DNA of 58,314 bases, from positions 1 to 58,314 of the IMG/VR virus record IMGVR_UViG_3300017694_000094. One strand, 5' to 3'. The position numbers were made by a program, and so were the translations under genes. Of this stretch, positions 12,040-50,729 are shown piece after piece; positions within the stretch are counted from its first letter, which is position 1; every line of letters starts with the position of its first letter. Below the pieces are notes generated by a model. The model was given only the letters and a program-made list of their open reading frames with translations. It made no database searches and was not told where the DNA came from. Source of the stretch: a virus.

Positions 12040-12071
12040 GCAGCCCCTGCGGTCACGGTCGCAGGGGCTGC
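12040..12071. terminator. convergent (bidirectional) terminator hairpin
   Basis: Perfect 12-bp stem GCAGCCCCTGCG / CGCAGGGGCTGC with an 8-nt loop, between the convergent gene ends. It overlaps the last codons of the giant ORF. Confidence 0.6.
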
Positions 12072-21000: not shown

Positions 21001-24000
21001 GGCCCATCTTGGCGCGCAGCTTCTCACGCAGGATCGCAGCGCGATCCGTGGTCACCAGCTTGTTGGATGCGCCGTAGGTTGCCGTCTCTCCGGCTGCCAC
21101 GCCCTTCGATGCGTTAGCGGCGGAACCCTCGCCCCGGCCGGAAGCGACATTCTGCTGCGCGCTTTCCTGCGCCTGCGCGGCCGGCGCGTCAACCCGGACG
21201 ATCGTGCCGCTCTTCAGCCCCTGCTCGATCTCATAATTGTTGAGCGAAGACGCGCCACCTGTCTCCACGTTGCGAAAGAACGCGCTGCGCTGGCCGGGGC
21301 GGCCATCGACCTCATAGGTGGTGCTGGCACCTTCGCGGCCTAGATACCCGACCGGGGCAGTGAAGACGTAGCGCTCGCCGCCACGAACCCAAGGGTTCGG
21401 GTTTTTCTTGTCCGTTGCTCGGCGCAGGGACGGCTTAGCCGCCGGGGCCGGGGCTGGTGTGACGACGGCCGGAGCGGGCGGGTTGAACCGCGTCATCATC
21501 TCTTCGACCGCGCGCTGCATGGCCTCGGCCTTGCCGAACCCACCGCCCGCGCCAGCCCCGCCCAGCGCGAAGGACACGGGCGATCCATCGTCCTGCGTGC
21601 GGACCGTCCAGCCCCGCGGCGTTTGCTCGACCCACACGGTCTTCCCGTACTGGCCGTCATAGTCGAAGTGGACGCGATCGCCGTTGTTGATCGCGGTGCG
21701 GGCTTCGGCCAGCGTCTTTGCCTCAACCGTCTTGGGGGCGGCAGGCTGCGGCGCAGGATCGCGCGCGCCCTGCTTCGCGCGCTGGTCGGCACGCGCCGTA
21801 TCCATCAAGTCGGGTTGGCCGGCGTTGTTGTCGAACAGCCCACCGTCGCTGCCAGCGGCTTTCTGCGCGACCGTCGCGCGCGAGCGGCCTTCGCTCTGGC
21901 GTTCTAGCGCGCGGCGCTGGTCGCCTTCGCGCTCGCCGAATGCGTCCGCTTGTACTGGTCGATCTTCCTGAGTTGCCCGGCCAGCTTCGCCGCGTCCTTC
22001 TGCTGCGCTGGCGACAGGCGGGGATGACTCGAAGCCTTCGACATTGCCGAAATCAGCGGAGCGAGGGGCGTCTTCGTCGAACGGGATGTCGAACGCTGCG
22101 TCGTCGGTTTGCTCATAAAAGTCCTCGCTCCGTGCCTCCGCCTTGCCGCGGAAATAATCCTCGACCGCTTCGAGCGAAGAACGCCCGTCAGCCATATACG
22201 CCGCAACGCCGTCGATGTCCTCGGCGGTCGCGTCGGTGATCCCGTATTCCTCCAGCCCGCGCTCGGCGAACACGCGCGCGCCCTCGCGGTCCGTCTCGTC
22301 CTGCCGCGCCGCCTTGCGATCGGCCACGTCCGCGGCGTCCGCCGGGCGGTACTGGTTCTCGAACGCGGAGCGATCCAGCATGTCTATGACCTGCCGCGTC
22401 GTCGGCCGCTCTTGGAAGTAGCCCGCCTCCGCCAGCAGTTCGCCGGCCTCGTCGAGCGTCATGCCGTTCTTGCGGAAGACGTGCCCGCCGCCCGGCGCGA
22501 ACTGCGATAGGTCGCGACTGCCCGCGCCCTGGTTGCGCGAGCGACGCTTCAGCGCATGGCCTTCGTCGTCGCGGATGCCGCCGTTGCGAGCGAGAAAGGT
22601 GACCGCATCCACCGGCGCAGTATCGCGCGTAGCGCGCGGCTTGGCGGCGGGGGGCGCTTGCTCTGCGGCCTCAACACGGCTGACGAAAGCGTCGGTGCTT
22701 TCCACCGGGGTCCGCGTCAGGCCCACACGCTCGGCGCGTTCGCGAAGATTGCCAGCCGGCGGTGGGGTGTTCGGCGCGGCGGGCGCGCCCTGCGGGTCCA
22801 GCTTGTTCGTGATCTGCTCGATCGCTTCAGCCGCGCCCATCACGTCACGGTTGGGCGGGCGAACCGCGCGCACCTCCGCCGCCTCGCCCATGACAGCGGC
22901 ATACGCGCCTTCGAGATACGAGAGCCGCGGGTTCCAGCCGGAGCCGCCGCCTTCGCGTGCCTTTACGACCGTGGACTGGTGACGATCGCTGATCTCGTAA
23001 TCGAGAATTGCCTGCACGTTACCGGCCTTGCCGACGCTCCAGCCATTAACCAGATCCTGCGCAACGGGGCTTTCGCGATGCGGCAGATCGCCCAGCGCGC
23101 TGGTCGCTCGCTTGAACTCCGTCGACTTCCATACCTTCTTGAACGTCGCGTCGTCGACCGCCTCGGAGGTGACAGGTTCTGTCACCCTCGCGCCCTGCTT
23201 CCGCATCTGATCTGCGCGTCGCGCGACCGCGGCGGCTTCCTCGACCGGCATACCGCCGGACAAGGTATCGCTGACCGCCATCTGTTGCGGCGACTGCTCT
23301 GCGGCTGGAGTGCTGACAGGAGTGACGCTGGATAGCGCCGCTTCGATCTCGCCGCGATACTTCGCGCTGTAGACCTGCGAGCCATCCTTGTTCACGACCG
23401 CGCGCGCCTTCGGGACCGCCTGCGCGATAGCCGCAAGCTGCGCCTCCGATGCGCCAGCGACGGCGATACCCTTGCCGCTCGGCGTCTCGGTGATCGTCGG
23501 CATGGTGACCGGGGCGGCGGCTGGCGGCGACACGACAGGATCTGTCCTATCGGCGACGGGCGCGGCCAGCGGCGCGGCTGGTTCCACTGTGGCATCAGCG
23601 ACGGGGGCGGGTTCCTGCTCAACTGCTGACGACGTGTCAGCAGCGGCGGGCGCGGCCGGCAACTCGACCTGCGCCGTTGACAGCGGCTCGTCCAGCAGGC
23701 GCGAGCGCTCGGCTTCCTCGATTGGCGCGGGCGGGGCGGCGTCGGCGGCGGTGCCGGCGGTGGCCCCGCGCTGCCCGCCGATGTGGCGCGCAGTCCATTC
23801 CATCGCCTGCGCGTTCGTCATGCCGGCGAACTGCGGGTTCGCTTTCACGATCGCACGGTCGACCGCCGCCGTGGGGTTGCGCGACATGCTGAGCGCGCCG
23901 CCCAGGCCGAAGTGATGCGCGGCGTACAGCGAGGCGTCGTCGACCGGGATGCCCGCGCGCGTCAGGCCCGCGGCGTTCTCTTCGGTCATGGCCCGCATCA

Positions 24001-30077: not shown

Positions 30078-30515
30078 TTACTGGCCTGCCAGCACAAGCT
30101 GGACGTTGGTAATCGCGGTCTGCGCGTCGGAAAGGGCGCGGCTGTACGTCGCCGCCGATCCCGCGCGCTGCGCCGCCGATGCCGCATTGAGCGCTGCCTG
30201 CGTCGCCAGCACAGCGCCGCGGAGGCGGAGTGCGGCAGGACTGCCGGGCTTGATCTGGCCGGAGTCCAAGAATGCGCCGATCACCGTCAGACCCTTGTCG
30301 AACGTGACGAACGCAACGCGAATGGCGCGATCATCGATCGTGGTTCGCGTCAGCGTTGGGGGCGGCGCTTCGCCGATTGCATCCAGCACGGCGGCGGTTG
30401 TTGCAGCTGCGGCCGAGATCGCGCTGGCGCGTTCCGGGGTGGAGCGCGGCAAGGGCGTGACGCAGCCGGCGAGAAGCGATGCGGCGGCAAGGGCGAGGGG
30501 GATGCAACGGCTCAT
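30078..30515 (-). CDS. lipoprotein (possible outer-membrane spanin component)
   Basis: Signal peptide plus lipobox MSRCIPLALAAASLLAGC. 4-nt overlap with the holin-like gene. Confidence 0.6.
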   Translation of the reverse strand: MSRCIPLALAAASLLAGCVTPLPRSTPERASAISAAAATTAAVLDAIGEAPPPTLTRTTIDDRAIRVAFVTFDKGLTVIGAFLDSGQIKPGSPAALRLRGAVLATQAALNAASAAQRAGSAATYSRALSDAQTAITNVQLVLAGQ

Positions 30516-30811
30516 GCGAGAGGCTCCACGGCGGGGGGTGGCGTCGGCTCGGTGACGACGGCGACATGATCTGGCGCGGCGCGAGCGACCGTCACCATCT
30601 TCTGCTTCTGCTGATACGATCGCAGCATGGCGTAGCCGATCGTCGCGACCGCCAGCAGCAGCCCCTCGACGAGTGCCGCATCGCTATCGGCGATGATGCC
30701 GCGCCGGATCAGCCAGCCCGCCAGTAGCGCGCCAGCATAGCGCACGGCGACACCCCCCATTCCCGGCAGCGCGCTCGGGTTGACCACGATAGGTCCGGTA
30801 TTTTCGGTCAT
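30512..30811 (-). CDS. holin-like membrane protein (2 TM)
   Basis: VAVRYAGALLAGWLI and LVEGLLLAVATIGYAML. Lies downstream of the endolysin. Confidence 0.5.
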   Translation of the reverse strand: MTENTGPIVVNPSALPGMGGVAVRYAGALLAGWLIRRGIIADSDAALVEGLLLAVATIGYAMLRSYQQKQKMVTVARAAPDHVAVVTEPTPPPAVEPLA

Positions 30812-31053
30812 GCGGGAACTCCTGCCTTGATGTGCGCCATGAAGCGCTGAAGGTGCAGCACGGCGTCTTCCTCGAAACTGGCGAGCGCGGCGTCGTGCGG
30901 CTCACCGCGCGCGCAAGCCATAGAATGGGACGGCACACCGAGCCAGCGGCACAGCGATTCATGAAGCGGGTCGTGGTCACGGTTCATCTCGACCGCGCTG
31001 GGGTAGCCCATCCACTTCGCCGTTTCGGCTTGATGCGCGTCGAAATCGGTCAC
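30808..31053 (-). CDS. hypothetical protein (81 aa, GTG start)
   Basis: GTGA overlap with the endolysin stop at 31050-31053. The remainder of track ORF 30808..31659 is an off-frame shadow over the endolysin. Confidence 0.45.
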   Translation of the reverse strand: MTDFDAHQAETAKWMGYPSAVEMNRDHDPLHESLCRWLGVPSHSMACARGEPHDAALASFEEDAVLHLQRFMAHIKAGVPA

Positions 31054-31667
31054 GGCAGAATTAGCCCCTTGGCCCTCAGCGTGCGGGCGCGGCGATCCTC
31101 GATACCGTTCGTGCCGCCGTTGATAAGCCGTGCGATACCGTCGAGGTCGTCGCCGTCCGCCAGCGCGTTCAATCCCTTGTCGGTCCAATACTTGGACGCA
31201 ACGAGAATTCCGACCGCTGGCATCGCCACCATTGCCGGGTTCGCCTCGAAGTCGAGGCCGAGCGCTTCGCCGTAGATACGGTAATTCGCGCGACCGGTTA
31301 GCTGGATCGGGCCTCGGCCGTGATACAGGTTTCCGTCGCCGATGGTGACGTTGCCGAGACGCGCGGCGACATTCGGGCGGTCGCCGGCCGGATCGTACAT
31401 GCGCGTGAAATACGCGACGTTGCCGATCTCTTCCATGTGCAGGAACCCGGCGCTTTCGTGCGAGGTCTGCCCCATGAAGTGGGCGAGCCGGAGCGGAGCG
31501 TCCATAACGCCATAGGCCCGCAAGTGGACATTCGCGCCAAGCGCCAAATCGCGCGCCCGCTGCGGCCCCGCCCCCATCTTCGCGAACAGCGCAGCCAGCG
31601 TTGCGCGGCCGGGCGCGTTGTCCTGCTTGACGCCAAGCCGCGCCTGCATCGGCTTCCAATCGATCAT
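31050..31667 (-). CDS. glycoside hydrolase family 19 (chitinase-like) endolysin
   Basis: HFMGQTSHESAGF...GDGNLYHGRGPIQLTGRANY...INGGTNGIEDR are GH19 hallmarks. ATGA-coupled start MIDWKPM at 31667. Confidence 0.8.
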   Translation of the reverse strand: MIDWKPMQARLGVKQDNAPGRATLAALFAKMGAGPQRARDLALGANVHLRAYGVMDAPLRLAHFMGQTSHESAGFLHMEEIGNVAYFTRMYDPAGDRPNVAARLGNVTIGDGNLYHGRGPIQLTGRANYRIYGEALGLDFEANPAMVAMPAVGILVASKYWTDKGLNALADGDDLDGIARLINGGTNGIEDRRARTLRAKGLILP

Positions 31668-32221
31668 CCCGCCTTCCCCTCTTCTGGTTCGACGCACAGC
31701 TTCGCCATGATGTCAGCCATCGGCGCGATCTCTTCCGCGTTCGGCATCTGGTCTGCCTGCATGTTGATGAGCGCCCGCGCCGACCGGGCGATCGTGTTGC
31801 CCGGCGAGATGCGCTCGATCTCGTCGAGTAGCATCGTGATGACGAACGCCTGCTGTCCTAGTCGAATGGTCTGCCCCGCAATCTGGGTTTCGGCCATCGT
31901 CAAGCGACGCGACTGATCTTCTTTTGCCTGCTTCAGCTTCTCGATGTCTTTCCACATCTCCGACCGAAGCTGCGCCTCACCGGTACGATCCGCCGTTTCC
32001 GCTGCCAGCCGAGCCGCCGCCGACGCCGCTTCGGCGGCGGCCTTCGCTGCCAAACGCTCGGGGGCGTTCTTCAGCCAGATCCTCCAGGCACCGATCATCC
32101 CGCTGGCAATCAGGATCACCAGCACCCAAATGCCATGTTCGATCGATTGGCCGTTTGCGGTTTTCATACCGACCTTAGCGACCGCTGCCGCGGTGGCCGC
32201 CAGTGCTGCAAGTGCGACCAT
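31664..32221 (-). CDS. N-terminally membrane-anchored coiled-coil protein (i-spanin-like or holin-associated)
   Basis: TM segment IWVLVILIASGMIGAW followed by a long helical region. Lies immediately upstream of the endolysin. Confidence 0.5.
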   Translation of the reverse strand: MVALAALAATAAAVAKVGMKTANGQSIEHGIWVLVILIASGMIGAWRIWLKNAPERLAAKAAAEAASAAARLAAETADRTGEAQLRSEMWKDIEKLKQAKEDQSRRLTMAETQIAGQTIRLGQQAFVITMLLDEIERISPGNTIARSARALINMQADQMPNAEEIAPMADIMAKLCVEPEEGKAG

Positions 32222-40684: not shown

Positions 40685-40881
40685 GCGGTGTAGTTGGGGG
40701 ATGACGTTGGTTCAGTCCGAGTTGCTTCGGAGACGATCCGCCGCAACTCGCCGATCGCGCCGCGTGCGCGATTGGTCGTGTCGAGGTCGAGCGGGCTTTC
40801 CAACTCGACCTGCAATTCCTTGATGCGCTTCTCGATGCGCTCGGCGAATGCTCGCCATTCGGGATGTGAAGGATCAAACAT
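40681..40881 (-). CDS. small hypothetical protein (66 aa)
   Basis: ORF track. Overlap-coupled on both sides. Confidence 0.5.
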   Translation of the reverse strand: MFDPSHPEWRAFAERIEKRIKELQVELESPLDLDTTNRARGAIGELRRIVSEATRTEPTSSPNYTA

Positions 40882-43139
40882 CAGCCAACCCCCACGCCAA
40901 CGGCTTCGCGCTCGGTGCCGCCCTCGCTGCGCGCAATCGCGGCTCGGCGTTCTTCGACGGCGATGTTGGCCGCGTGGACCCGCTCGCTGCTGTCCGTCTT
41001 CATCTTCTCCTTCGCCAGTTCGGCGTTGACCTGCGCCAGCGTGAGATCGTTCTTCATGGCGTATTCGGCCATCCAGCGTTCGCGGTCCATCTCGGCAAGC
41101 TGTAGTTTCGTCCGGCCGTCTTCCTGCGCGATCTGGAGGCGCGTGGCGTTCGGGTCCGTGCCCTGCTGCGCGGCCTGCTGCGCCGCGGCCATCGCCTGCT
41201 GCTCGGCGGCGATGTTCTGCTCGGCCTTATCCTTGTCGACCAAGATCTCGTCGGGCGGGATCATCATGGTCTGAACGGTCTTCACCAGCGTCTCGCGGAC
41301 CTTCAGGTAATGCTTCAGGACCGGGTGCATCGTCCACTGGTTGGCGATCATCATCAGGTTGATCGACTGCATCTCCTTGACCATCAGCACGGACGTACCG
41401 CGCGCGTCGATCTGCATGTCGCCCTTGACCGAATCGTCGGGGTTGAACTGCATGTTCCAGTCGTAGAACCGCCGGATTGTCGGCGTGGTCATGTCGTCGT
41501 CCCACGCCTTCACGATGCGGCGGAACACGACGTTCGCGCTGTTGAACAGCATCGACGTGGTGCCGACCGGCTGCACGGTCGCGCCCGCCTCGCCCTGAGC
41601 GACCTGCGGCATCGACACTTCCTCGTCGACGAAATCGCGGCCGATTTTGATGATGCCGGCGAGTTCGTTCGAGTTGATCGGGATGTTGAACACCTCGAAC
41701 GGCTTCTGCTGCGTCGCCATCGCGGTCGAGGTCTTCAGCCACACCTTCAGCGGCTTCATGCCCCAATCGCCGTCCTGCGGCACGATGCTGCTCTTATCGA
41801 CCACGACCTGCGGGCCAACCGACAACCCGGAGTTGTCGAGCATCATACGCCACGCGCCGTTGATCGCTTTCGCGCTCGGTCCCATGATGTGCGGAACGCC
41901 GATGCCGAAGATCGACGTTTCGCCTTTGAGGAAGTTGAACACCGAGTAGAGGCTGTCACCGCTGTCGAGCGGCCATTCCTCCGCGATGCGCAGCACCTCG
42001 TCTCCGCAAAAGTGGACGATGACACGGTGATCTTCGAGCGGATCCTTCTCTTCCAGGAACCGCCTCGCATCGTCGGGGCGACCTGCCGCGTCCAGCAGCA
42101 GCGCGATCTCGTCGCACTCCAGCGGGCCGTGGTATTCCCACATGACGTAGCGATCCTTGATCTGCTCGCCTTCGCCGTTGATCGCGCGCAGTTCGGCGAT
42201 ATGCCCGGTGTCGCTCTGGTTCATGCCGAGCGGGCCAAGTTCCAGCAGGCGGCGGACGGCGGCCTTGTTAAAGCCCAGCTTGCGCGCATACTTGCGCAGG
42301 TCGCGCTTCGTCGGGAGCGAGCGCTCAAAGGTGAACTCCGCTTCCTCGATTCGGCGCGCGGACATATCGGGGAAGAAGTGCCACGGGTCGATGCGTATCG
42401 CCTCGGGCTGCGGGTCCGGCAGTTCGGCCATCTCCCACACGCGCTTGCCGGTGTTCTGGTCGTCGTTGCCGCGCCATTCCTTGCGGACGCGGTTCGAGGT
42501 CAGCGGTCCCTTGATGATCCCGGTTCCGAGCCGGCAGGCATCCTCGATCGCGTCGCGCGACTGCGCCACCCACCGCGACTGCACAAGCTGGTCGTCGATC
42601 GCCTCCTGCATGGCGTCGGACGCCTTCTTGGCGGCCTCCATCTCTTCGTTCGTCTGCTTCGCCTTCTGCGCGTAGGCGTTGGCCTGCTCGATCGTGGCGG
42701 CTGCAACGTCCGGCTGCTCGGCCTGCTGCGCGGCATTGGCATCGTCGACCGCTTTCTGAGCGGCCAAGACGGCCTCCTTCGCCGCGGCGGCCAGCTTCGG
42801 CAGCGGCGTAGGCGCGATGCCCCAATTCCGATCATCGGTCGGGAACAGCAAATCGCCCAGGCGGGCGGCCCATGAGTTCGTCTTGGATTGCGTCAGCTTG
42901 AAGTTCGCGGTCGACGCGCCCGCTTTTTTCATGTTGGCGAGGTCGGCCTCGGTATAGTGGCCGAAATACTGGCGCAGATCCTCCAGCCAGCGGAGTTCGA
43001 TCAGCACGCGGCGGCTGACCTGCTCGCGCGCGAGGCTATCCAGCCGGCCGATGATGGGGCGGCAGGCTTCGAGGATTTCGTCCTCGCGCTTCTCCGCATC
43101 CATTTCCTCTACGGCGACCAACGGCCCCTGCATCTGCAT
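40881..43139 (-). CDS. portal protein
   Basis: 752 aa, immediately downstream of the terL nuclease fragment. Called from size and position. Has a C-terminal charged tail. Confidence 0.7.
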   Translation of the reverse strand: MQMQGPLVAVEEMDAEKREDEILEACRPIIGRLDSLAREQVSRRVLIELRWLEDLRQYFGHYTEADLANMKKAGASTANFKLTQSKTNSWAARLGDLLFPTDDRNWGIAPTPLPKLAAAAKEAVLAAQKAVDDANAAQQAEQPDVAAATIEQANAYAQKAKQTNEEMEAAKKASDAMQEAIDDQLVQSRWVAQSRDAIEDACRLGTGIIKGPLTSNRVRKEWRGNDDQNTGKRVWEMAELPDPQPEAIRIDPWHFFPDMSARRIEEAEFTFERSLPTKRDLRKYARKLGFNKAAVRRLLELGPLGMNQSDTGHIAELRAINGEGEQIKDRYVMWEYHGPLECDEIALLLDAAGRPDDARRFLEEKDPLEDHRVIVHFCGDEVLRIAEEWPLDSGDSLYSVFNFLKGETSIFGIGVPHIMGPSAKAINGAWRMMLDNSGLSVGPQVVVDKSSIVPQDGDWGMKPLKVWLKTSTAMATQQKPFEVFNIPINSNELAGIIKIGRDFVDEEVSMPQVAQGEAGATVQPVGTTSMLFNSANVVFRRIVKAWDDDMTTPTIRRFYDWNMQFNPDDSVKGDMQIDARGTSVLMVKEMQSINLMMIANQWTMHPVLKHYLKVRETLVKTVQTMMIPPDEILVDKDKAEQNIAAEQQAMAAAQQAAQQGTDPNATRLQIAQEDGRTKLQLAEMDRERWMAEYAMKNDLTLAQVNAELAKEKMKTDSSERVHAANIAVEERRAAIARSEGGTEREAVGVGVG

Positions 43140-43155: not shown

Positions 43156-43890
43156 TCAGTTGTAGAGGTTGCGCACCGGCTGTCCTACCAACAATTCGAC
43201 CGGCGGGATAGTGAACCGCGCAAGCGATGTGGGCCGAACGCCGTAGCGCGTCGCGTCCATAAGGTGGTCGTTGCTCTTCACGATGTTGCCGTTCTTGTCG
43301 CGCCGGTAGATCCGGTATTCGGACAGCCAGTTCACACACGACGCGAACACCTTCAGCCGACCGGTCGCCAGCCGCAGGTACATATCGAGGATGCCCGCAT
43401 CGACGCCGTTGTCAGCCGGGACGATATGCAGCCCCAGGTTGAGGTAGACCTGCATCAGCTGCTCGCCGTCGCGCTGGGACCGGCCCTTGGCCGCCGGATC
43501 GATCACACCGCGCAGCCACTCGCCGCGCGCGCGGATCGCCGCGGCGTGCGCGGACGGTTCGGCTTGACCGCGGTAATGCTCGCTGGTGACGTAGAGGATG
43601 TCCTGATCGCGATCCCACGCGAAGAAGGCCGCAGCCGTTCTCTTCCAGCCCACGTCGAGGCCGTAGCCGCGCAGGAAATGCGCAGGGATCTTGAACGGGG
43701 GCACCACGAACTCGCTCTCCGCGATCGGGTAGATCGCGCCCTGCCCGAGCGAAGGGATACCCTTTGAGCGCGCGTCGCGCAGGTGCGGCGGCGTCTCGTT
43801 CAACATCTTCCTCCGCGTTGCCTCGTCGAGATGGGGCACGTCAGCCCATCCCGCCGAGACAAGGTATTTGGATTCGCTGATCTCCGGCAT
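43156..43890 (-). CDS. terL: terminase large subunit, C-terminal nuclease (RNase H-like) fragment
   Basis: KYLVSAGWADVPHLDEATRRKML...SKGIPSLGQGAIYP...GLDVGW...NDHLMDATRYG. Has its own ATG, which overlaps the upstream stop (TGATG 43888-43892). Confidence 0.8.
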   Translation of the reverse strand: MPEISESKYLVSAGWADVPHLDEATRRKMLNETPPHLRDARSKGIPSLGQGAIYPIAESEFVVPPFKIPAHFLRGYGLDVGWKRTAAAFFAWDRDQDILYVTSEHYRGQAEPSAHAAAIRARGEWLRGVIDPAAKGRSQRDGEQLMQVYLNLGLHIVPADNGVDAGILDMYLRLATGRLKVFASCVNWLSEYRIYRRDKNGNIVKSNDHLMDATRYGVRPTSLARFTIPPVELLVGQPVRNLYN

Positions 43891-46187
43891 CAGGGCGCAG
43901 CGTTGGTGGCGTCAGTGCCATCCGGGTTGAATGCCCCGTTATATGAACCGTCGCCCCGCTTGAGAGCGCCGTTCACCTTGGGCGCGAGTGCCGATCGAAC
44001 CCGCGCCTCAATCTGCGCCCATGTCGCATTGGCCCAATCGAACGCTTCCAGAAGCATCGTCGGGTTCGAGGCGAAATGGTTGCTGTAATCGGGCAGGCCG
44101 TTCAGCGTGCCGCCCAGCGCCGTAACCCCGTCGCTCGTGTCGAACACGCCGCCATTGCTGACCTGCCCGTAGAAGATGGACCGGAGCAAGGCGTTCGGCC
44201 CCTGATAGCCGGCCGCGCCTTGGTTCTGATCGGTGCGGGCGGTGAAACTGTTGTTGTTTGCGCCGGGCATCACGTCAATCGTGGTGTCGCGCAGCGGCAC
44301 AACCGGGCGCTGAAGAACGGTCGTGATGTTGCGCATGGTCGACGCCTTGCTTTCCGACACGCCAACAGCGGCGGTGATCGTTCCTGCGATCACGAGGCCG
44401 TTGATATTGTACGTGTTCGCGTGCGCGCCGCTCGTGACGTTCGCGGCCAGCGTGCCGAAAATACCCTGCGCCAGCCCGTCACCGTCAGCCTGAATGCTCC
44501 AGCATCGGTTGAAGGTGGCGACGCAATTCCGGTTCTGCGCGTTCATCTGGAAGGCATCGGCATGGTTCGAGGTCGCGACGCCGCGCACGTCGAGACGATC
44601 CGGCGCGATCCACCGGCAATCGTTGAACGTCCAGATTTCGGTGCCGTCGCCCGTACCGGTGATATCGGCGTTGTCCCAGAAGTGGCGAATCCGCATCCGG
44701 TTGACCGTGACGTTCGTCACCGTGCCAGCGGGATTGTTGTTCGAACCGGCGCAACCCGCGCGCACGAACTCACCGTCGCAATCGTTCAGCGTGACCGTGG
44801 CATTGCCACCGATCGAGAACAGCGGCTTGCTCTTGTTCTGATCGGCGGTCGTGGTGTTCACGTAATAGTAGGTGCGAGTGCCGAAATGCCGGAACCGGTT
44901 GACCGTGACCGCTGACGCGAGGTTGCCGGATCCGTCCAGGCCGATCTGGAAACGCGACACGACGTTCGTCCCGTCGCTGTCGCTCGTCATGAGGTCGTTG
45001 AATGTCACGTTCGAGCAAGAGCGGGCCAGCCATGCCGCCGGCCAACGGACGCGAGCCGTATCGTGAGCGCGGAAGATAGTCGGGTTGGTGAACCGCCACG
45101 TCGCGATCAGCTTGCCCGTTGGCTGCACTGCGACGCCCAGATAGTCCGCGCCGGCCGCGATCTCGATCGTCTTGCCGTCCACACGCGCGCCATAGGTGGT
45201 CGGCACGGCGTTGAAGTTGTCCGCTTGCCCGAGCGTGAACACGTCCGGCAACACGTTGGCAGTGATCGTGCTGACCTCCGTTGACCCGTCCGCGAAAGCC
45301 GCCGTCACTTGGAACACCGCTTGGGTGTCTGGCAGGAAGTTCGCCGCTCCAGTCGCGCTCGGAACGGGCGTCGAGGTGCGCGCGCCCGTCGTCCAGTGCG
45401 CGGGAGTGCCAGGCGAAGGGGCTGCAATCGTCCACGACGTGGGGGCCTCCGCTCCCGTCTTCAGAAGCCCGAGTTCAGGATTCGCCAACGGGACGCCACC
45501 AATGCCGGAAGCTGTCTGCCGCCCGAAGCCATAAGTGACGAACTCGTTCGTTCGGCGTCCGCTGAATACGGCGATCGTTTTCGCATCCGAACTCACCGTC
45601 ACGGTCGCGCCCAGAAGGGCGACCGTGAGGCGGAAGAAGACCGGACGGTTAGCGTCGGCCGACACCGGCGTATAAGCAAGCGCAGTAGGGGCGTCGGCCG
45701 ACGCGAGGACCGTGCCTGTCGTGGCATCAACGAGTTCGCGCTTGGTCGCGAGATAGCCGAGCGGTGGGACGCCATCGCTGAATACCATTGCGACGCCGAC
45801 CTGCGGGGAGCCGACGATGGTCGGAAGCAGGGTGAATACGGGCGTGCTGCCGCCCGAGCGGTACGTTCGACCCGCGGCTATCAATGCGCCAAGCTGCGAT
45901 GCGTCAGGCTGGAAGGGTACGCCAGTCGGCAGGAAGTCGAGACGACCGTTGATCGTGACCGGCACGCGCGACCCGTAGGTTCGCTGGGACAGCAGGATGA
46001 AGCCGTCCGGCACAGTGGTCAGGAACTGCTGCGTCTGGATGTTCAGAGCCTGGAGGGCCGCAACCTCCGCATCGCTCGCGACGTAATCTTCGCCGGTCGG
46101 GATGTAACTGACCCGGCCATTCAGGCCGATCGGTACGCGCGACCCAAAAGGCGAAGCGGCGCGGGGGATGTGGATGGTCGTCGGCAT
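43890..46187 (-). CDS. right-handed beta-helix protein (polysaccharide depolymerase / tailspike-like), 765 aa
   Basis: ATG 46187. Repetitive N/T/G-rich strands (VTVNRFRHF, VTVNRMRIRHF, SNHADAFQMN). Has an N-terminal roughly 55-aa duplication (GSRVPIGLNGRVSYIPTG / GSRVPVTINGRLDFLPTG). Confidence 0.6.
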   Translation of the reverse strand: MPTTIHIPRAASPFGSRVPIGLNGRVSYIPTGEDYVASDAEVAALQALNIQTQQFLTTVPDGFILLSQRTYGSRVPVTINGRLDFLPTGVPFQPDASQLGALIAAGRTYRSGGSTPVFTLLPTIVGSPQVGVAMVFSDGVPPLGYLATKRELVDATTGTVLASADAPTALAYTPVSADANRPVFFRLTVALLGATVTVSSDAKTIAVFSGRRTNEFVTYGFGRQTASGIGGVPLANPELGLLKTGAEAPTSWTIAAPSPGTPAHWTTGARTSTPVPSATGAANFLPDTQAVFQVTAAFADGSTEVSTITANVLPDVFTLGQADNFNAVPTTYGARVDGKTIEIAAGADYLGVAVQPTGKLIATWRFTNPTIFRAHDTARVRWPAAWLARSCSNVTFNDLMTSDSDGTNVVSRFQIGLDGSGNLASAVTVNRFRHFGTRTYYYVNTTTADQNKSKPLFSIGGNATVTLNDCDGEFVRAGCAGSNNNPAGTVTNVTVNRMRIRHFWDNADITGTGDGTEIWTFNDCRWIAPDRLDVRGVATSNHADAFQMNAQNRNCVATFNRCWSIQADGDGLAQGIFGTLAANVTSGAHANTYNINGLVIAGTITAAVGVSESKASTMRNITTVLQRPVVPLRDTTIDVMPGANNNSFTARTDQNQGAAGYQGPNALLRSIFYGQVSNGGVFDTSDGVTALGGTLNGLPDYSNHFASNPTMLLEAFDWANATWAQIEARVRSALAPKVNGALKRGDGSYNGAFNPDGTDATNAAP

Positions 46188-46194
46188 GGCTACC

Positions 46195-46782
46195 TCAACG
46201 GTTCGCTTGCGTGGCGGGGAGAGAAAGGGCGAAAACCTGCGTACCGGTCGCGGCTGCAACTTCCACCGCCGCGCCAAGAATACTGATCGAGGCGACCGAC
46301 TGAACACAGGTCGCGCCGGTGAAGCCAGTATTGGTCGTGGACGTGACCTTGCACTTCACGCCCGGCGCACCGGTTGCACCGATCGCCGTGAAGAACATGG
46401 GGTAACTGGCCGCGCCCGCCGGCAGGGGAGCGGGGTTGCCGGCGCTATCCAGCCATGCGCAGGTCGTCGACCCGCCGCACAGAATCGCGCCGCCAGCGCT
46501 GACCGTGAAGATTCCGGTCCGGCTGATGCGGTTGTCAGCCGCGTTGACCAAGCGGCAGTTCGTGCCGCTGCCGGTGGTGCCCCCTGGCACTTCGGTCGGC
46601 GGGACCACTGCCATAGGCTGGCACGCGGCAGCGGCGGCGGCGGCGGCGGCATCCGCCTTGGCAACGGCTGCGTCGATTGTCTGCTGTACCGACGAGGGCA
46701 CAACGACGACAGGCGGGTAGGTTGTTTGCGCTGCGGCCGGGGCGGCGAACAGCGCGACGAGGGATGCGAATAGGTAGCGCAT
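46195..46782 (-). CDS. secreted Cys-containing protein (Sec signal peptide)
   Basis: MRYLFASLVALFAAPAAAQ followed by a mature region with 6 Cys. Confidence 0.6.
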   Translation of the reverse strand: MRYLFASLVALFAAPAAAQTTYPPVVVVPSSVQQTIDAAVAKADAAAAAAAAACQPMAVVPPTEVPGGTTGSGTNCRLVNAADNRISRTGIFTVSAGGAILCGGSTTCAWLDSAGNPAPLPAGAASYPMFFTAIGATGAPGVKCKVTSTTNTGFTGATCVQSVASISILGAAVEVAAATGTQVFALSLPATQANR

Positions 46783-46785
46783 GGA

Positions 46786-47919
46786 TCAGGACTCCACGAT
46801 GTAGCCGATGGGCGTAGCGGCTTGCCCGCAGACCATAAAGACTGGCGCAGCAGTGTTCATGGTATGCGTTGCGCCCGCCGTCGCCTGAAGCGGGTAGCCG
46901 GTGGTGGTCGTGACACCGCTCGGTCCGATGTAGCATTTCACAGCCGCATCGACGGTGATCGTCAGTCGGCCGCGCCCGGCCTGCGCCGCAACGATTTGGG
47001 TTGCCGTGGTGCCGACCGACACCTGCCCGCTGGTCAGCGTCGCCGTTCCCTTGGCGACCACGTACTGGCCGGTGGTGTCACCGCGCATCCGGTCCCATGT
47101 CGCACCATTGAACACCAGTCCCTGCCCGACGACGTACATGCCATTTGTCGAGGCGGTAGCATCCACCAGTGATGCACCAGCGACCTGCGCCTGCAAACCG
47201 CTGGTGCCGCCGATCGCAGTGTACAGCAGACCGCGTGACGTAAACTGCGCCTGCACCCGCTGCCCTGCACTGTACGCGGGAAGAGTCGTAACGAATGCTC
47301 CACCAATTGGAACAGGGTTCCCAGTTTGCGCCACGCCATCAGCGACCGTTCCTCCCGCGATCACGGAGCCTAGCGCGTTGGTGCCCGCCGGAAGCGGCTG
47401 TTCGAGGACAGTCGCGAGGCGACCATTGCTATCGCACCGCATCGAACCGGTCCACATATCAGACCATGTGACGGGCGAAGCGCGGTACTGGCACCCGACA
47501 ATATCGGCGGTGGTCGTGGTGGCGGGCATCGGGCCGGGCGGGAGCGGCGCATGGCTGCTCAACCCAACCTTCAGGCGGCCGGTCGAGGTAAGCGTGAGCG
47601 GCTGCGTGGTGCCAACCGTGTACGCCTGATCGCCGGACACAACTGCGGCCTGCGTCAGCCCGCCCGACTGGCCCGCCGTGGTCGATCCCTGCGCCACCGC
47701 GCTGGAACCGCCGCCACCGCCGGCAGGATCGATCACCGTCCCGTCAGCGCGGATCGGAACGACCGCCTCGACCTGAGCGATGTTGCCGTCTGCGGTGGTG
47801 ACCGCAACGCGGCCGGGGCGGCCGGGCGCGCGGTCGTCCGTTCGGACAACGGTCTGCGCGATGGATGCGGCTGGTACGGCCAAGGCGGTGACCGCCAATA
47901 GCAGGCGACGGAACTTCAT
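46786..47919 (-). CDS. secreted protein (Sec signal peptide), 377 aa
   Basis: ATG 47919 lies behind GGGAGA. Starts MKFRRLLLAVTALAVPAASIAQ, then a beta-rich Gly/Thr/Ala sequence. Confidence 0.6.
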   Translation of the reverse strand: MKFRRLLLAVTALAVPAASIAQTVVRTDDRAPGRPGRVAVTTADGNIAQVEAVVPIRADGTVIDPAGGGGGSSAVAQGSTTAGQSGGLTQAAVVSGDQAYTVGTTQPLTLTSTGRLKVGLSSHAPLPPGPMPATTTTADIVGCQYRASPVTWSDMWTGSMRCDSNGRLATVLEQPLPAGTNALGSVIAGGTVADGVAQTGNPVPIGGAFVTTLPAYSAGQRVQAQFTSRGLLYTAIGGTSGLQAQVAGASLVDATASTNGMYVVGQGLVFNGATWDRMRGDTTGQYVVAKGTATLTSGQVSVGTTATQIVAAQAGRGRLTITVDAAVKCYIGPSGVTTTTGYPLQATAGATHTMNTAAPVFMVCGQAATPIGYIVES

Positions 47920-48097
47920 GCTGATCTCCCTAGCGCACCCCGCGCGCAGGGGTATCACGACCAACCCGGTTCCGCTATATCCGATTCGCCCTCTCCTACG
48001 GACGCAGTTACCTAGCGCGGCGGTCGCGGCCCTCTCCCCCCTCAGTGACCGCCGCGCCCTCTTTCATTACCGGCCATTATCGGTTATTACCGGCGCG

Positions 48098-48213
48098 CTG
48101 CGGCGTGGCGGAATCGATAGACGCTGAAAGTCGTAAGGCGAAGCTGGGCACCGGGCTAACTCAGGCTCCGTGAAGGACCAGCGTATTCCGGGTTTGAATC
48201 CCGGCCCGCAGCA
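48098..48213 (+). ncRNA. tRNA-Leu-derived / tRNA-like element lacking a recognisable anticodon arm
   Basis: GTGGCGGAATCGATAGACGC matches the class II tRNA-Leu D-arm. T-arm CCGGG-TTTGAAT-CCCGG. 6-bp acceptor pairing CTGCGG/CCGCAG. About 115 nt long. An exhaustive 5-7-5 scan of 48125-48187 found no anticodon stem-loop. Confidence 0.4.
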
Positions 48214-49104
48214 TCATTCCTCTTCAGCGTCGTTCCACTTGCCCCAATCGCCGGACTCCAGCGGCGTGTCCTTTGCCGGGCGCATCTCTTCGGGCAGGAA
48301 CGACAGCACCGTCTCGGTCAGGCCCTCCAGCGGCGTGTACGTCATCATCGTAATGCCGCCGGTCGTCATCGTGCGGATGCGCGCCTCGTCGTACACCGAC
48401 AACTCCGGTTCCTCGTCGACCCAGATCAGGTGCTGCGCCGTGCCCTGGAATGCCTTGCGCCCCTGCGCGTAGGATTTCAGGTTCAGCTTCGACCAGCCGC
48501 CCGACGAGTGACGGATCTTGATGTTGTCGATCAGATCCTGCGCGCCCTGCTTCCACGCAAGCTGACCGGGGTTGCGGCCGATCAACTCGGTCGGGATCAT
48601 GCCCGAGCCGTCCACGCTCTTGCGCGCGCCCTGATGCTGGATGTCGCCCAGCAGGATCACCTGGATAATGTCGCGCGTCGTCTCGTTGGTGTCGCCAGCT
48701 GCGATCGCGCGGATCGGGTGACGGAAGCGTCGCCCCTCCCACCAGTCGGGATAGATGCCGGTCAGGTGGCACGTCGTCTCGTACCCGCCGACGACGGTCT
48801 TGCCGACGCGGTTGCCGGCCATGAAGCAGCGCTCGACGTACTGCGCGCCCGCCTTGAAGAACTCCATGTGCCGCGGGTAGCCCGAGCGCGGCCAGTAATC
48901 CGACCACTCCCCATCGCCGACCTTCTTGAACTTCTCGGGGAACAGGTTCTCGAACTTGCGGTACTTCTGCTCCCACCGCTCTTGCTCGTAGATCTGGAGA
49001 AGGCTCTCGACGCGCTCAGCGCCCAGCCGCTCCACGATCTCCTGACCGGAGAGTTCTTGGACTCCGGCAGCAGTCAGGTGATCGCGAAGCCAGCCGGCGA
49101 ACAT
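48214..49104 (-). CDS. terL: terminase large subunit, N-terminal ATPase fragment
   Basis: Walker A AGNRVGKT (48796-48819), Walker B LIWVDEEP (48406-48426), then TYTPLEGLTETV. Ends with a 24-codon tail after LPE. Confidence 0.8.
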   Translation of the reverse strand: MFAGWLRDHLTAAGVQELSGQEIVERLGAERVESLLQIYEQERWEQKYRKFENLFPEKFKKVGDGEWSDYWPRSGYPRHMEFFKAGAQYVERCFMAGNRVGKTVVGGYETTCHLTGIYPDWWEGRRFRHPIRAIAAGDTNETTRDIIQVILLGDIQHQGARKSVDGSGMIPTELIGRNPGQLAWKQGAQDLIDNIKIRHSSGGWSKLNLKSYAQGRKAFQGTAQHLIWVDEEPELSVYDEARIRTMTTGGITMMTYTPLEGLTETVLSFLPEEMRPAKDTPLESGDWGKWNDAEEE

Positions 49105-49783: not shown

Positions 49784-49947
49784 CGGGCGGATGCCGGCAG
49801 AAGCCGCGTGGCGGTGCGGACGGGGATGCCCGCGCGCCATGCGGCTTCCTTGAACGTGCGGGAGGAAGCCAGCGCCGCGGTGAGACGGTCGCGCTTCTCG
49901 TCGGTCGCGCGGGTCCGCGCCGCGTTCGCTGGCCCCCATCCGCGCAT
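49780..49947 (-). CDS. small HTH-like protein (55 aa)
   Basis: TFKEAAWRAGIPVRTATRLL. Coupled start at 49947. Confidence 0.45.
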   Translation of the reverse strand: MRGWGPANAARTRATDEKRDRLTAALASSRTFKEAAWRAGIPVRTATRLLPASAR

Positions 49948-50729
49948 CAGATCAGCGCCTCCTTGCTGACACCGGCGCGGTTCAGCCGGTCGAGAAGGAT
50001 CTGCGCGTAGCGGAACATGGCGTCGTGCTGCTCGCCCATCGCCTGCGCTTCCTCGTTCGGCACGCCATCCCACGCGGGCTGTTCGAAGAAGCGGCCGAGC
50101 GCCTGCCACTTCGCGTTCAGCTGACGGTACTCGTCGATCATGCGGTCGACGTGCGCCGGGTAGCCGGACGGCGGCTGCGGCGGGGTCTGCGTTTGGCCGG
50201 CGAGGAAGGCGCGGAACGCCTCCGCCCGCTCGACGATACGCGGCGTCGGCGCGCTGGGATCACCAACGGCGAGGTGCAGCGCCGTGTGGCGATGCTGCTG
50301 GTCGACCTGCTCGGCGGTCGGCCGATAAACATCGTTGCTGGCGAAGTTCAGCGCGAACGTGTCGGGCGGCAGGTCATCGCTGCTGCCCGGCTCGTCGGCC
50401 GCGACATAGGTCGCCTCGAAAATGTCGGGCTTGCACGGGTAGATCTCGCCCTTCACGCCGCGGATGATCCAGTCGCCGACATCCGCCATCATCGTGCCTT
50501 CCTTGGTCACGATTTGGAGATATTGCGCCAACGGGTCTTTTGCCGTGGGCTGCCAACCAGCCCATCCCTCGGCTCCGACGCGAGCGCACAGCGCATCCTT
50601 CAGCCATTCCGGCAATGCGCTGAAGCAATTCGCCGTCGCGCCAGCCGGGGCGTTGAACGGCTCCAGCCGGTATTGCACGGCATCGATGGTCACCGGCTGC
50701 TTGCGCCAGCGGGTCGGGGTGTCGGTCAT
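49947..50729 (-). CDS. hypothetical protein (260 aa)
   Basis: ORF track. Protein-like two-domain sequence. Confidence 0.6.
   Translation of the reverse strand: MTDTPTRWRKQPVTIDAVQYRLEPFNAPAGATANCFSALPEWLKDALCARVGAEGWAGWQPTAKDPLAQYLQIVTKEGTMMADVGDWIIRGVKGEIYPCKPDIFEATYVAADEPGSSDDLPPDTFALNFASNDVYRPTAEQVDQQHRHTALHLAVGDPSAPTPRIVERAEAFRAFLAGQTQTPPQPPSGYPAHVDRMIDEYRQLNAKWQALGRFFEQPAWDGVPNEEAQAMGEQHDAMFRYAQILLDRLNRAGVSKEALI

Follow-up and report, generated by a model that had tools for sequence, protein, structure and literature searches.

A two-gene TerL with a predicted host-envelope module at its gene junction in a 58-kb phage genome

Results

Organization of the locus

In the window (the whole stretch of DNA analysed, 58,314 nt), a three-gene cassette that an earlier note had placed inside terL is better described as lying between two separately encoded terL halves. 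The position had been seen correctly, but there is no singular disrupting insertion, since terL proved to be two-gene in 38 of 75 non-redundant related loci, where the halves either differ in reading frame or have a stop codon between them. The reading towards which we lean, with slightly better than even confidence, is that TerL is the product of two genes whose junction carries a host-envelope module, gene 3 of which would encode a virion-attached depolymerase and genes 1 and 2 proteins acting on the envelope. The features are as follows.

49104..48214, minus strand: terL ATPase-core gene (terL-N), 296 aa; Pfam Terminase_6N 8.9e-13, phrog_31467 3.6e-76
48213..47920, minus strand: non-coding stretch between terL-N and gene 1, 294 nt
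48060..48213, minus strand: window-specific segment directly 3' of the terL-N stop, about 150 bp (alignment, identity profile)
47920..48059, minus strand: conserved leader 5' of gene 1 (sequence reading and relatives)
47919..46786, minus strand: gene 1, 377 aa (homologues, AF2, Foldseek, dN/dS)
46782..46195, minus strand: gene 2, 195 aa (homologue alignment, dN/dS)
46187..43890, minus strand: gene 3, 765 aa (AF2, Foldseek BFVD, HMMER homologues)
43892..43888, minus strand: TGATG overlap, in which the TGA that ends gene 3 and the ATG that opens terL-C have one base in common
43890..43156, minus strand: terL lid-plus-nuclease gene (terL-C), 244 aa; Pfam Terminase_6C 6.6e-11
40881..43139, minus strand: portal gene, phrog_332 and phrog_1216; downstream end of the packaging block

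The cassette genes have the same orientation as the packaging genes. Divergence was measured against the relative L001, with the portal gene (97% identity, dS 0.27) as backbone reference. The dN/dS values (gene 1, 0.16; gene 2, 0.09; aa 1-200 of gene 3, 0.16) indicate that these are real genes and not chance ORFs. On re-reading, the coordinates and sequence statements of the earlier note all held, as did its claim that the cassette has a non-coding region and a ribosome-binding site of its own: GGGAG lies 7 nt 5' of the gene 1 ATG at 47919, and the leader, which contains an 11-bp inverted repeat (GCGCGGCGGTC...GACCGCCGCGC), is kept in L001 and, in part, in L007, as judged by alignment. The segment at 48060..48213 is absent in both relatives, folds strongly (MFE -53.9 kcal/mol) and is unique within the window. 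No sigma-70-like or terminator-like consensus was found at the cassette flanks, leader included.

TerL as two genes

The product of terL-N ends 23 aa past the motif TYTPLEGLTETVLSFLP. In that of terL-C, the nuclease fold begins near aa 48 (match to the P22 TerL nuclease domain 4DKW, 7.8e-24, aa 48-227), and alignment to intact TerLs showed that the ~47 aa ahead of it are equivalent to the C-terminal stretch of the ATPase domain of the fused proteins; the break is thus 47 aa N-terminal to the nuclease fold. Purifying selection on the two halves is strong (dN/dS against L001 of 0.14 for terL-N and 0.04 for terL-C). The halves were simply adjacent in 19 of the 38 split loci, and most of the 15 adjacent junctions that were read had ATGA, GTGA or ATGAGTAA overlaps, which recurred in independent contigs. 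Another 19 split loci carried junction inserts of 0.2-5 kb, with HNH motifs in the gap ORFs of L026 and L028 and an Endonuclease_7 match (2.9e-20) in the gap of L025.

Judged from sequence comparison, TerL comes in two forms in this podovirus terminase family, either fused or as separate ATPase Rossmann core and lid-nuclease genes. The break site is the variable linker after TPLxGLTxxVxxFLP, the halves being normally joined by an overlapping stop and start, and the junction is a permissive, recurrent landing site that is occupied in some lineages by HNH or EndoVII homing-type endonuclease genes. The cultured relatives that were checked were all fused and, because all two-gene examples come from uncultured contigs, the function of the split TerL is inferred from conservation only; it would act as a non-covalent pair of ATPase and lid-nuclease.

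The overlap between the gene 3 stop and the nuclease start had been reported before and was found again here. It had been taken to tie nuclease translation to the cassette. The overlap is real, but it was inherited from the ancestral overlap of the ATPase stop and the nuclease start and brings no new dependency. No Shine-Dalgarno motif was found before the terL-C ATG; as last gene of the cassette, gene 3 takes over the stop/start coupling through which the nuclease gene receives its ribosomes.

A conserved module at the junction

On the terL-C tree, from which L007 (10.8-kb insert) was left out, the window grouped with L001, L022, L067, L070, L074, L075 and L082 in one clade in which every terL is split. 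The order of a signal-peptide jelly-roll protein, a signal-peptide Ala-rich protein and one or more large proteins was found in L001, L007, L067, L070, L074 and L075, in gaps of 3-8 genes and 4.3-10.8 kb. The large proteins open with the N-terminal module of gene 3 (N-module) in all of these except L067, which has a 198-aa protein in that place, and their domains include a GH5 cellulase (4.8e-41), Polysacc_lyase plus GDSL, Beta_helix and FAD_oxidored. Every N-module protein with a readable context was inside such an island. The TGATG overlap was also present in L001, with abutting or overlapping counterparts in L067, L070 and L075. All the relatives that carry the cassette have a split terL, and the same genes were not found at this position beside an intact one.

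These comparisons suggest that the junction in this clade holds a host-envelope module made up of an exported jelly-roll protein, an exported Cys-rich protein and N-module glycan-active proteins. The three genes of the window are one instance of a conserved module grammar that elsewhere, in other phages, appears within ordinary structural blocks, and are not a random set of morons.

Gene 3

The AF2 model of gene 3 (pLDDT 84.6, pTM 0.75) opens with a duplicated N-module (aa 1-112), joined by a disordered linker (114-142) to Ig-like domains (~145-350); a right-handed beta-helix (~360-700) and a helical C-terminus follow. The N-terminal duplication noted earlier was located at aa 13-47 (FGSRVPIGLNGRVSYIPTG) and 70-104 (YGSRVPVTINGRLDFLPTG), and the N-module is, by its sequence, a new duplicated unit of ~55 aa. 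The proposal of a beta-helix depolymerase gained support from the model and from Foldseek matches in BFVD (2.7e-10 to 7e-4) to phage proteins of the pectate-lyase fold and to tailspikes. Against the PDB, the top Foldseek matches were Ig/cadherin only and included no beta-helix; the Pfam Beta_helix and Pectate_lyase models did not match, and Pfam and PHROGs were empty overall. Gene 3 has 43 HMMER homologues and no signal peptide. The conserved residues of the helix (R501, N506, D523, H542, D544, Q547 and Q574) form a putative active site.

Nucleotide identity to L001 was 93-97%, the backbone level, over the first ~600 nt; past this point the genes could not be aligned, and identity returned ~90 nt before the stop. 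A backbone-like start with a swapped remainder is what marks a receptor-binding protein anchored in the virion, and most likely gene 3 is a depolymerase anchored in the same way, the distal part of which can be swapped. The first ~180 aa would be the anchor, evolving with the virion backbone, and the Ig and beta-helix part would be exchanged by recombination, giving a virion-attached glycan depolymerase. The spikes of P22 (gp9), K1F/K5 and Klebsiella phages likewise have a conserved N-terminal virion anchor and an exchangeable beta-helix. Gene 3 resembles them in the succession of anchor, linker and beta-helix, in its backbone-like anchor and recombined distal part and in the conserved putative acidic/His active site. 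In contrast to these spikes, it belongs to no sequence family in Pfam or PHROGs, starts with the new N-module, has Ig-like domains before the helix and is encoded between terminase genes, not in the tail block.

Genes 1 and 2

The two signal peptides described earlier were recovered by a heuristic and by alignment to relatives. In gene 1, the predicted Sec-type signal peptide covers aa 1-21 (MKFRRLLLAVTALAVPAASIA|Q, cleavage ASIA|Q) and is kept in 12-14 of 17 relatives; in gene 2, it covers aa 1-18 (MRYLFASLVALFAAPAAA|Q, cleavage AAA|Q) and is present in 24 of 24, always ending in A-x-A-Q with an invariant Q19. This crude heuristic was passed by 3 of the 56 predicted proteins of the window, namely gene 1, gene 2 and the lysis lipoprotein. 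Genes 1 and 2 were considered as spanins and rejected, as there is a lysis cassette apart from them, which includes a lipobox protein.

In gene 1 (18 homologues), the signal peptide is followed by a Gly run and a conserved AQGSTTAGQ...GRLKVGLSS block; the middle (aa 165-290) is variable, and the C-terminus forms a jelly-roll (aa ~295-377; AF2 pLDDT 81-93), the model being poor outside the last 80 aa. The best Foldseek match of the jelly-roll was the PM2 spike P1 (7e-4, rmsd 2.0 A over 77 aa), and it also resembles penton base. Gene 2 (31 homologues, identity 50-87%) has an Ala-rich spacer and a conserved C-terminal domain of ~135 aa with six Cys and the end LSLPATQANR; Pfam, PHROG, NCBIfam and PDB searches gave no match for it. 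The Cys count is even in both proteins. Against L001, the dS of both genes was 0.9 versus 0.2-0.4 for the backbone, and their alleles have therefore been exchanged.

Discussion

Exported proteins that block the receptor are encoded beside the receptor-binding protein gene in T5 (Llp, beside pb5) and in T1/phi80 (Cor), and lambda lom is a late-operon moron. Genes 1 and 2 are similar in that signal-peptide proteins lie beside a host-recognition gene, are exchanged with it and belong to late or structural operons. They differ in that they are not lipoproteins, show no homology to these proteins and have a putative role, and in being two proteins instead of one, one of them fibre-like with a jelly-roll. 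Their products would leave the cytoplasm via Sec and act on the envelope; if so exported, they could not be built into virions. Most likely they would mask or modify the receptor glycan recognised by the neighbouring enzyme. Receptor masking, which is possible on the basis of analogy and gene linkage only, would result in superinfection exclusion or keep progeny from adsorbing to debris.

A different view, to which we give perhaps one chance in several, is that of an autonomous moron or cargo island in which three accessory passengers occupy a safe site: gene 3 would be a soluble depolymerase released at lysis, its N-module would bind carbohydrate and not serve as virion anchor, and genes 1 and 2 would be unrelated factors for exclusion or fitness. 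A leader and ribosome-binding site of its own, a GC3 of 0.75-0.80 against 0.85-0.89 in the neighbours and a dS far over the backbone level would suit such an island. Moreover, a pair formed by the C-terminal part of gene 1 and gene 2 (54% identity) is present in the early-gene region of an unrelated 60-kb phage, the N-module of L007 is followed by a Pro/Thr linker as in secreted glycanases, and the tail block of the window already has a canonical 490-aa tail fibre. However, the same grammar, order and orientation are found in at least six diverged lineages, gene 3 is backbone-like over its first ~600 nt and swapped thereafter, the flanks have no promoter or terminator consensus, and translation of an essential gene is coupled to that of the last one, all of which argue against this view.

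It is more doubtful that all three proteins are virion parts, such as head or tail fibres and their base, with N-terminal hydrophobic segments that do not export but might be cut by a phage protease or insert into the membrane at infection. The positions of some relatives hint at a structural role for them: in L062 and L064, signal-peptide relatives of gene 2 sit in a dense gene order between capsid and tail (adaptor) genes, starts and stops overlapping, and gene 1 relatives that lack a signal peptide are part of structural or packaging blocks in L076 and in Sphingomonas phage Scott, where the relative adjoins terL. The likeness of the gene 1 jelly-roll to PM2 P1 and penton base points the same way, as does the C-terminus of the L070 GH5 protein, which is GTA head-spike-fibre-like at a value (5.4e-7) below the cut-off. 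Nevertheless, tailed-phage virions assemble in the cytoplasm. Genes 1 and 2 display a full Sec/SPase I layout (basic n-region, h-region of 10-14 aa, A-x-A|Q) and the six conserved Cys of gene 2 suit an oxidising compartment. Without export, it would be hard to see why the cleavage-site Q is kept in 24 of 24 gene 2 relatives, which argues against virion parts.

Removal of the interruption (by a giant intron, other splicing or bypass) to give a single-chain TerL, or a broken terL in a defective contig, is very improbable: spliced group I introns do split terL in other phages (PMC10448857; PMC12880540) and L007 has an intein in the Walker A loop of TerL, but the search for Rfam intron families was negative both at the gathering threshold and at E<=5, the N half ends in a stop of its own, the C half begins with a conserved start of its own (MPEIS...), the few-base overlaps in most of the adjacent junctions read among the 19 leave nothing to splice, the cassette-type inserts hold 3-8 complete, selected genes, the halves have dN/dS of 0.04-0.14, and the window is a complete-looking 58-kb genome found in three assemblies.

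Interruption of terL by group I introns, inteins and neighbouring HEGs is known in ICP1, T4-like, T5-like and Jug phages (PMC10448857, PMC12880540, PMC5050341). Common to them and the two-gene TerL is that mobile elements favour terL as a target, the L007 intein being a classical one. In those phages, RNA-level or protein-level removal of the interruption yields one chain, whereas here there is no sign of splicing and half of the terL family of the window is two-gene by design. A closer parallel is nrdA of Aeromonas phage Aeh1, which, as described in PMC3045599 and relayed in PMC10448857, is split into two ORFs by mobE, a free-standing homing endonuclease gene, with polypeptides that assemble non-covalently. 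As far as that description goes, in both cases two ORFs encode an essential phage enzyme between them, the break falling where it is tolerated, and homing-endonuclease genes occur at the same TerL junction in L025, L026 and L028. Relative to what is described for Aeh1, the window has no endonuclease gene, the TerL split also occurs with an empty junction (overlapping stop and start), cassette-type gaps hold 3-8 cargo genes with a conserved grammar, and the pairing of the TerL halves is putative.

Finally, the hosts of the clade are probably Sphingomonas, as suggested by one Sphingomonas MAG contig and one weak phage match.

Organization of the terL locus

The window covers nearly all of a metagenomic phage contig of 58,332 bp, which was recovered in three independent assemblies. 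In this phage the large-terminase gene (terL) is two genes: an ATPase-core gene (terL-N) and a lid-plus-nuclease gene (terL-C), which together fit the definition of a Terminase_6 (T4/P22-like) large terminase on two ORFs, and between which lies a cassette of three genes.

Features of the terL locus and its downstream neighbour
49104-48214, minus strand: terL-N, 296 aa; Terminase_6N, 8.9e-13
between terL-N and gene 1, minus strand: non-coding stretch, 294 nt
47919-46786, minus strand: gene 1, 377 aa
46782-46195, minus strand: gene 2, 195 aa
46187-43890, minus strand: gene 3, 765 aa
43890-43156, minus strand: terL-C, 244 aa; Terminase_6C, 6.6e-11
43139-40881, minus strand: portal

When coordinates and ORF order were re-read from the sequence, all that the earlier note had stated of the cassette at this level proved correct. 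A Shine-Dalgarno-like motif precedes each of genes 1, 2 and 3, and none was found before terL-C. The last cargo gene is stop/start-coupled to the nuclease gene: the ATG of terL-C shares one base with the gene 3 stop (TGATG), an overlap already described and now confirmed. The cassette was also compared with a moron, an autonomous accessory transcription unit that would have a promoter and terminator to itself and a deviant base composition. The leader upstream of gene 1 is conserved in relatives, and no sigma-70 promoter or terminator consensus was found flanking the cassette. Its GC3 (0.75-0.80) is lower than that of its neighbours (0.85-0.89), and the value of the tail-fibre gene (0.69) is near that of the cassette.

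The first 150 bp after the terL-N stop (48060-48213, minus strand) are unique in the window and missing from both L001, a related contig with the same layout, and L007, a relative with a larger junction. This segment has a strong predicted fold (-53.9 kcal/mol) and holds a tRNA-T-arm-like hairpin (CCGGGATTCAAACCCGG) that ARAGORN did not call. No tRNA or Rfam family, introns included, was detected in the window. A tRNA or att remnant in the leader was rejected, since ARAGORN finds none and the T-loop-like hairpin is non-canonical.

The split terL in related phages

Alignment to fused TerLs placed the end of terL-N 23 aa past the strand TYTPLEGLTETVLSFLP and the start of terL-C just before SKYLVSAGWADVPHLDE. 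The nuclease fold (P22 nuclease domain 4DKW, 7.8e-24) begins only at aa 48 of terL-C, so the cut leaves the Rossmann core on one side and the lid or linker with the nuclease on the other. An apparent repeat of some 14 aa, shared by both ends of the junction, probably reflects the two tails aligning to a variable linker.

We collected loci with terL-C relatives, 49 of them viral and 78 metagenomic, and scored a non-redundant set of 75. The gene was fused in 37/75 and split in 38/75, the halves of the latter being in different frames or parted by a stop. Half of the split loci (19/38) carried 0.2-5 kb inserted at the same point, and the other 19 had their halves simply adjacent, a classification that rests on metagenomic assemblies. 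Most of the 15 adjacent junctions that were read displayed ATGA, GTGA or ATGAGTAA overlaps, with the start codon exactly before SK.VV, and such overlaps recurred in independent samples. Loci with nothing between the halves and an overlapping stop/start include L024, L031, L029, L096, L100, L106-L108, L118 and L136, among others. In a neighbour-joining tree of one domain (terL-C), split and fused forms were interleaved, and a metagenome scan with terL-C yielded more split loci and no new cargo islands. These results show that the terL break is not peculiar to the window phage and that the junction accepts DNA repeatedly. Two PHROG families, phrog_31467 ("unknown function", N half) and phrog_5653 (C half), probably reflect the same split.

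Several mechanisms that would restore one chain were considered. An intron was rejected, as Rfam gave no match at the gathering threshold, nor any intron match at E<=5. Each half is an ORF in its own right, terL-N with its own stop and terL-C with its own start, which does not fit a group I/II intron or an intein joining the two, and neither carries an intein-sized extension of the kind expected of a split intein. Programmed frameshifting at the adjacent junctions was also rejected, there being no slippery sites and the start codons lying exactly at the overlap.

That terL can be interrupted by introns, inteins or homing endonucleases is well established (PMC10448857, PMC12880540, PMC5050341), and in nrdA of phage Aeh1 a homing endonuclease leaves an essential gene in two functional pieces (PMC3045599). 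The window terL resembles these "genes in pieces" in being divided into two ORFs at a conserved position, each half under selection. It differs in that Pfam and PHROG searches found no free-standing endonuclease gene between its halves, whereas such genes are present at the same junction in three relatives: gap ORFs with HNH motifs in L026 and L028, and an Endonuclease_7 protein (2.9e-20) in L025. Only intron, intein and homing endonuclease cases turned up in the literature searched, which described no terL family with a common two-ORF, overlapping stop/start state and no multi-gene host-interaction island between terL halves.

The Walker A loop is a second insertion hot spot, and L007 has a canonical intein there. 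Its terL-N (540-2396) is a 618-aa ORF with the intein (Cys...His-Asn|Thr) in the Walker A loop GNR|VGKT, and an HNH-like ORF lies on the opposite strand within it (820-1710). The same P-loop site is interrupted in the related loci L032 and L034. The cultured relatives inspected have a fused terL; those with a "hypothetical" N-half match were considered as split cases and proved to be fused. The terL annotation of the cultured Xanthomonas phage DES1 (L005, OK624832, 2908-5241) comprises two pieces separated by a 166-aa ORF, and its cut lies elsewhere than in the window, at about aa 117 of the ATPase part.

Genes 1 and 2 encode proteins with conserved signal peptides

The earlier note had read cleavable Sec-type signal peptides in genes 1 and 2. 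We looked for a Sec/SPase I layout (basic n-region, hydrophobic h-region of 7-15 aa, small residues at -3/-1, no lipobox Cys) with a home-made and crude n/h/c-region heuristic, which 3/56 window proteins passed, namely gene 1, gene 2 and a lipobox lysis protein. Conservation across the families is stronger evidence than this heuristic, and both bear out the layout: a signal peptide was found in 12/17 gene 1 relatives by heuristic and 14/17 by eye, and in 22/24 gene 2 relatives by heuristic and all 24 aligned relatives by eye. The three gene 1 relatives that lack it are P0012, P0014 and P0017. In both families the signal peptide ends A-x-A-Q, and in the alignment of gene 2 relatives (A5) the Q at +1 is invariant. 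The spacer that follows in the gene 2 family ranges from about 20 to about 140 aa, and gene 2 has six conserved cysteines. A Tat signal was rejected because the RR is not conserved in relatives.

One gene 1 relative without a signal peptide, SPS_19 of Sphingomonas phage Scott (L156, MH684921, 5980-6666), lies directly downstream of an intact terL in this cultured Autographiviridae phage and is followed by a "putative tail fiber protein".

We also considered genes 1 and 2 as a spanin pair, that is, an inner-membrane coiled-coil protein plus an outer-membrane lipoprotein beside holin and endolysin. This was rejected: they have no lipobox, and the phage does not require them in this role, having a full, separate lysis block.

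Lysis block
30078-32221, minus strand: lipobox protein (MSRCIPLALAAASLLAG|C), 99-aa membrane protein, endolysin (GH19-like, phrog_181, 1.1e-45), 185-aa TM plus coiled-coil protein

None of genes 1-3 matched Pfam, PHROGs or NCBIfam, and PDB sequence searches gave marginal matches only (penton base, 0.027; tail protein, 0.023) and none for gene 2. The families of genes 1 and 2 comprise about 50 members, which are phage-only and without database annotation. The predicted model of gene 1 was poor (pLDDT 53.5) except for aa ~295-377, a jelly-roll whose best PDB structure match was the PM2 spike protein P1 (7e-4, rmsd 2.0 A over 77 aa), followed by Ena appendage subunits, nucleoplasmin and STIV A223. 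These matches are weak and the predicted jelly-roll is a common fold.

Gene 3 is predicted to adopt a beta-helix fold

Gene 3 was modelled with AF2 from 27 aligned sequences (pLDDT 84.6, pTM 0.75). The model begins with a duplicated ~55-aa module (aa 1-112, hereafter the N-module) and a disordered linker; Ig-like domains, a long series of short strands and a helical end follow. The N-terminal duplication described earlier was confirmed. In a Foldseek search of BFVD (predicted viral structures) the top match was an unnamed protein (2.7e-10), phage proteins labelled "pectate lyase superfamily" or "pectin lyase fold" matched at 1.6e-5 to 7e-4, and the tail spikes of Arno160, K5 and Det7 more weakly, at about 6e-3. 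Among the top 50 PDB matches no beta-helix appeared, and only the Ig-like part matched (cadherins, ~3e-3). Neither gene 3 nor its 27 aligned relatives matched Pfam Beta_helix, Pectate_lyase_3 or a PHROG tail spike. The beta-helix proposed from the sequence thus stands at the level of fold (AF2, Foldseek against BFVD) and not at that of sequence family (Pfam, PHROG, NCBIfam), since the structure matches but the family searches are empty. Residues R501, N506, D523, H542, D544, Q547 and Q574 are conserved in 17-20/21 relatives. A word-indexed protein search found one relative of gene 3, an exhaustive HMMER search found more, and tblastn against 50,697 phage records gave short weak matches only.

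Mosaic divergence from the related contig L001

The same layout in L001 allowed the locus to be compared gene by gene. Identity was 95% for terL-N and 97% for the portal, 74% for gene 1 and 87% for gene 2, and for gene 3 it was 70% over the first 399 aa and only 29% over the last 300. The dN/dS values (gene 1, 0.16; gene 2, 0.09; gene 3 aa 1-200, 0.16) show that the three cassette proteins are real and under selection. Those of terL-N (0.14) and terL-C (0.04) denote purifying selection on both halves and, with the recurrence of the split, suggest that a two-gene terL is viable. Synonymous divergence across the locus is mosaic: 0.17-0.37 for the backbone (terL-N, terL-C, portal and codons 1-200 of gene 3) and 0.9-2.1 for the cargo (genes 1 and 2 and the remainder of gene 3). 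In the nucleotide profile the backbone was 92-98% identical and genes 1-2 73-88%, falling to 41-67% in mid gene 1; the first ~600 nt of gene 3 were 93-97% identical, after which the gene could not be aligned until ~90 nt before its stop.

Cargo at the junction in related loci

On the terL-C tree, the window and L001 belong to a clade in which every member is split, together with L082, L022, L075, L074, L067 and L070. Their junctions, and that of L007, whose terL halves are 76% and 81% identical to those of the window, are listed below.

Contents of the terL junction in relatives (SP, signal peptide)
L082: ~200 bp only
L022: 98-aa protein; 445-aa SGNH protein (GDSL, 1.5e-16)
L067: SP gene 1-like; SP gene 2-like; 198-aa protein overlapping the terL-C start
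L070: 120-aa SP jelly-roll; 409-aa SP protein; 137-aa protein consisting of just the gene 3 N-module; 407-aa protein; GH5 cellulase (4.8e-41) beginning with one N-module repeat
L074: SP jelly-roll protein; SP Ala-rich protein; 954-aa N-module protein; Beta_helix protein
L075: SP jelly-roll protein; SP Ala-rich protein; 921-aa N-module protein
L007 (10.8 kb): gene 1-like; gene 2-like; pair of small ORFs; proteins of 534 and 478 aa; N-module protein of 1346 aa (domains Polysacc_lyase and GDSL); SP-bearing DUF1996 protein

All N-module proteins with readable context lie within such junction islands. The cassette is a conserved, selected and recombining module made of two families with Sec-type signal peptides and one glycan-enzyme-like family without. 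In L070 (9630-11465) a 611-aa protein joins the N-module repeat and GH5 (4.8e-41) to a C-terminus resembling GTA head-spike fibres (NF048003, 5.4e-7, below cut-off), which hints that module-tagged enzymes might be head, not tail, appendages.

The unit also occurs elsewhere. L062 and L064, which lie outside the clade and have unrelated intact terminases, carry a small SP jelly-roll and a gene 2-like protein followed by large or beta-helix proteins, inside structural blocks. A pair made of the gene 1 C-terminal part and gene 2 was found among the early genes of a 60-kb phage. A gene 2 profile scan of viral contigs returned three loci, of which L067, a member of the clade, was the useful one.

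Proposed function of the cassette

We propose gene 3 as a putative virion-anchored depolymerase or receptor-binding protein, because the first ~180 aa evolve together with the backbone and the distal part is swapped. As a tailspike depolymerase it would be trimeric and virion-attached and would cleave host polysaccharide. Genes 1 and 2 are predicted from their N-termini to be exported and, since tailed virions assemble in the cytoplasm, they would act on the envelope and not in the particle. By analogy with T5 Llp and Cor, they may mask the receptor that the linked enzyme recognises, or alter it; Llp adjoins pb5, and Cor lies near tail-fibre genes.

A broader reading, which we put forward tentatively and regard as rather unlikely in its entirety, is that the junction serves the whole clade as a dedicated "host-range locus". 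Recombination would run through the conserved terL halves and the gene 3 N-module as arms, and co-infecting phages would in this way exchange a unit of three parts (a jelly-roll protein and a Cys-rich protein, both exported, and an anchored glycanase); the exported pair would be a new kind of phage-encoded envelope system, tuned to whatever the adjacent enzyme is specific for; and the phages would demonstrate in nature that a packaging motor can work with ATPase core and lid plus nuclease on separate chains.

Of the alternatives, that in which all three proteins are virion fibres with non-exporting N-termini is kept alive by the relatives placed in structural blocks; the family-wide conservation of the signal peptides points to export. 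Another is that the cassette is an unrelated moron set with a soluble depolymerase, to be set beside the co-evolution of the gene 3 N-terminus with the backbone. Splicing to a single TerL chain is unlikely, given the relatives with overlapping ORFs.

Models of the terminase motor rely on movement between ATPase core, lid and nuclease domain within one chain. About half of this terL family is naturally cut between core and lid, with and without cargo, and so offers a ready-made system for testing the need for covalent linkage. If host-recognition and envelope-acting genes do swap between the terL halves, the most conserved phage gene would provide universal homology arms for cassette exchange. 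Automated annotation would be misled by such loci, calling the terL halves "hypothetical" and missing tailspikes outside the tail block. For receptor masking or exclusion in Sphingomonas-type phages, the two families predicted to be exported also offer new candidates.

Host and other genome features

The host is probably Sphingomonas or a relative, a tentative assignment based on the GC content (65%), a gene 2 relative in a Sphingomonas MAG contig (the single match of a gene 2 profile scan of genome contigs) and a weak match to phage Scott. A scan of early genes found no integrase. An ERF-family single-strand annealing protein is encoded at 8598-9293 (plus strand; 5.4e-14) and a Sequestin-domain protein at 49947-50729 (minus strand), upstream of the packaging genes; Dam and DUF2280 also figure in the contig table. 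A single ORF of 4545 aa (12053-25690, minus strand; GC3 0.85) carries an LPD38 domain (1e-36) and weak Eco57I-methylase and helicase-C matches, and is a giant "polyvalent protein" that takes up a quarter of this 58-kb podovirus genome.
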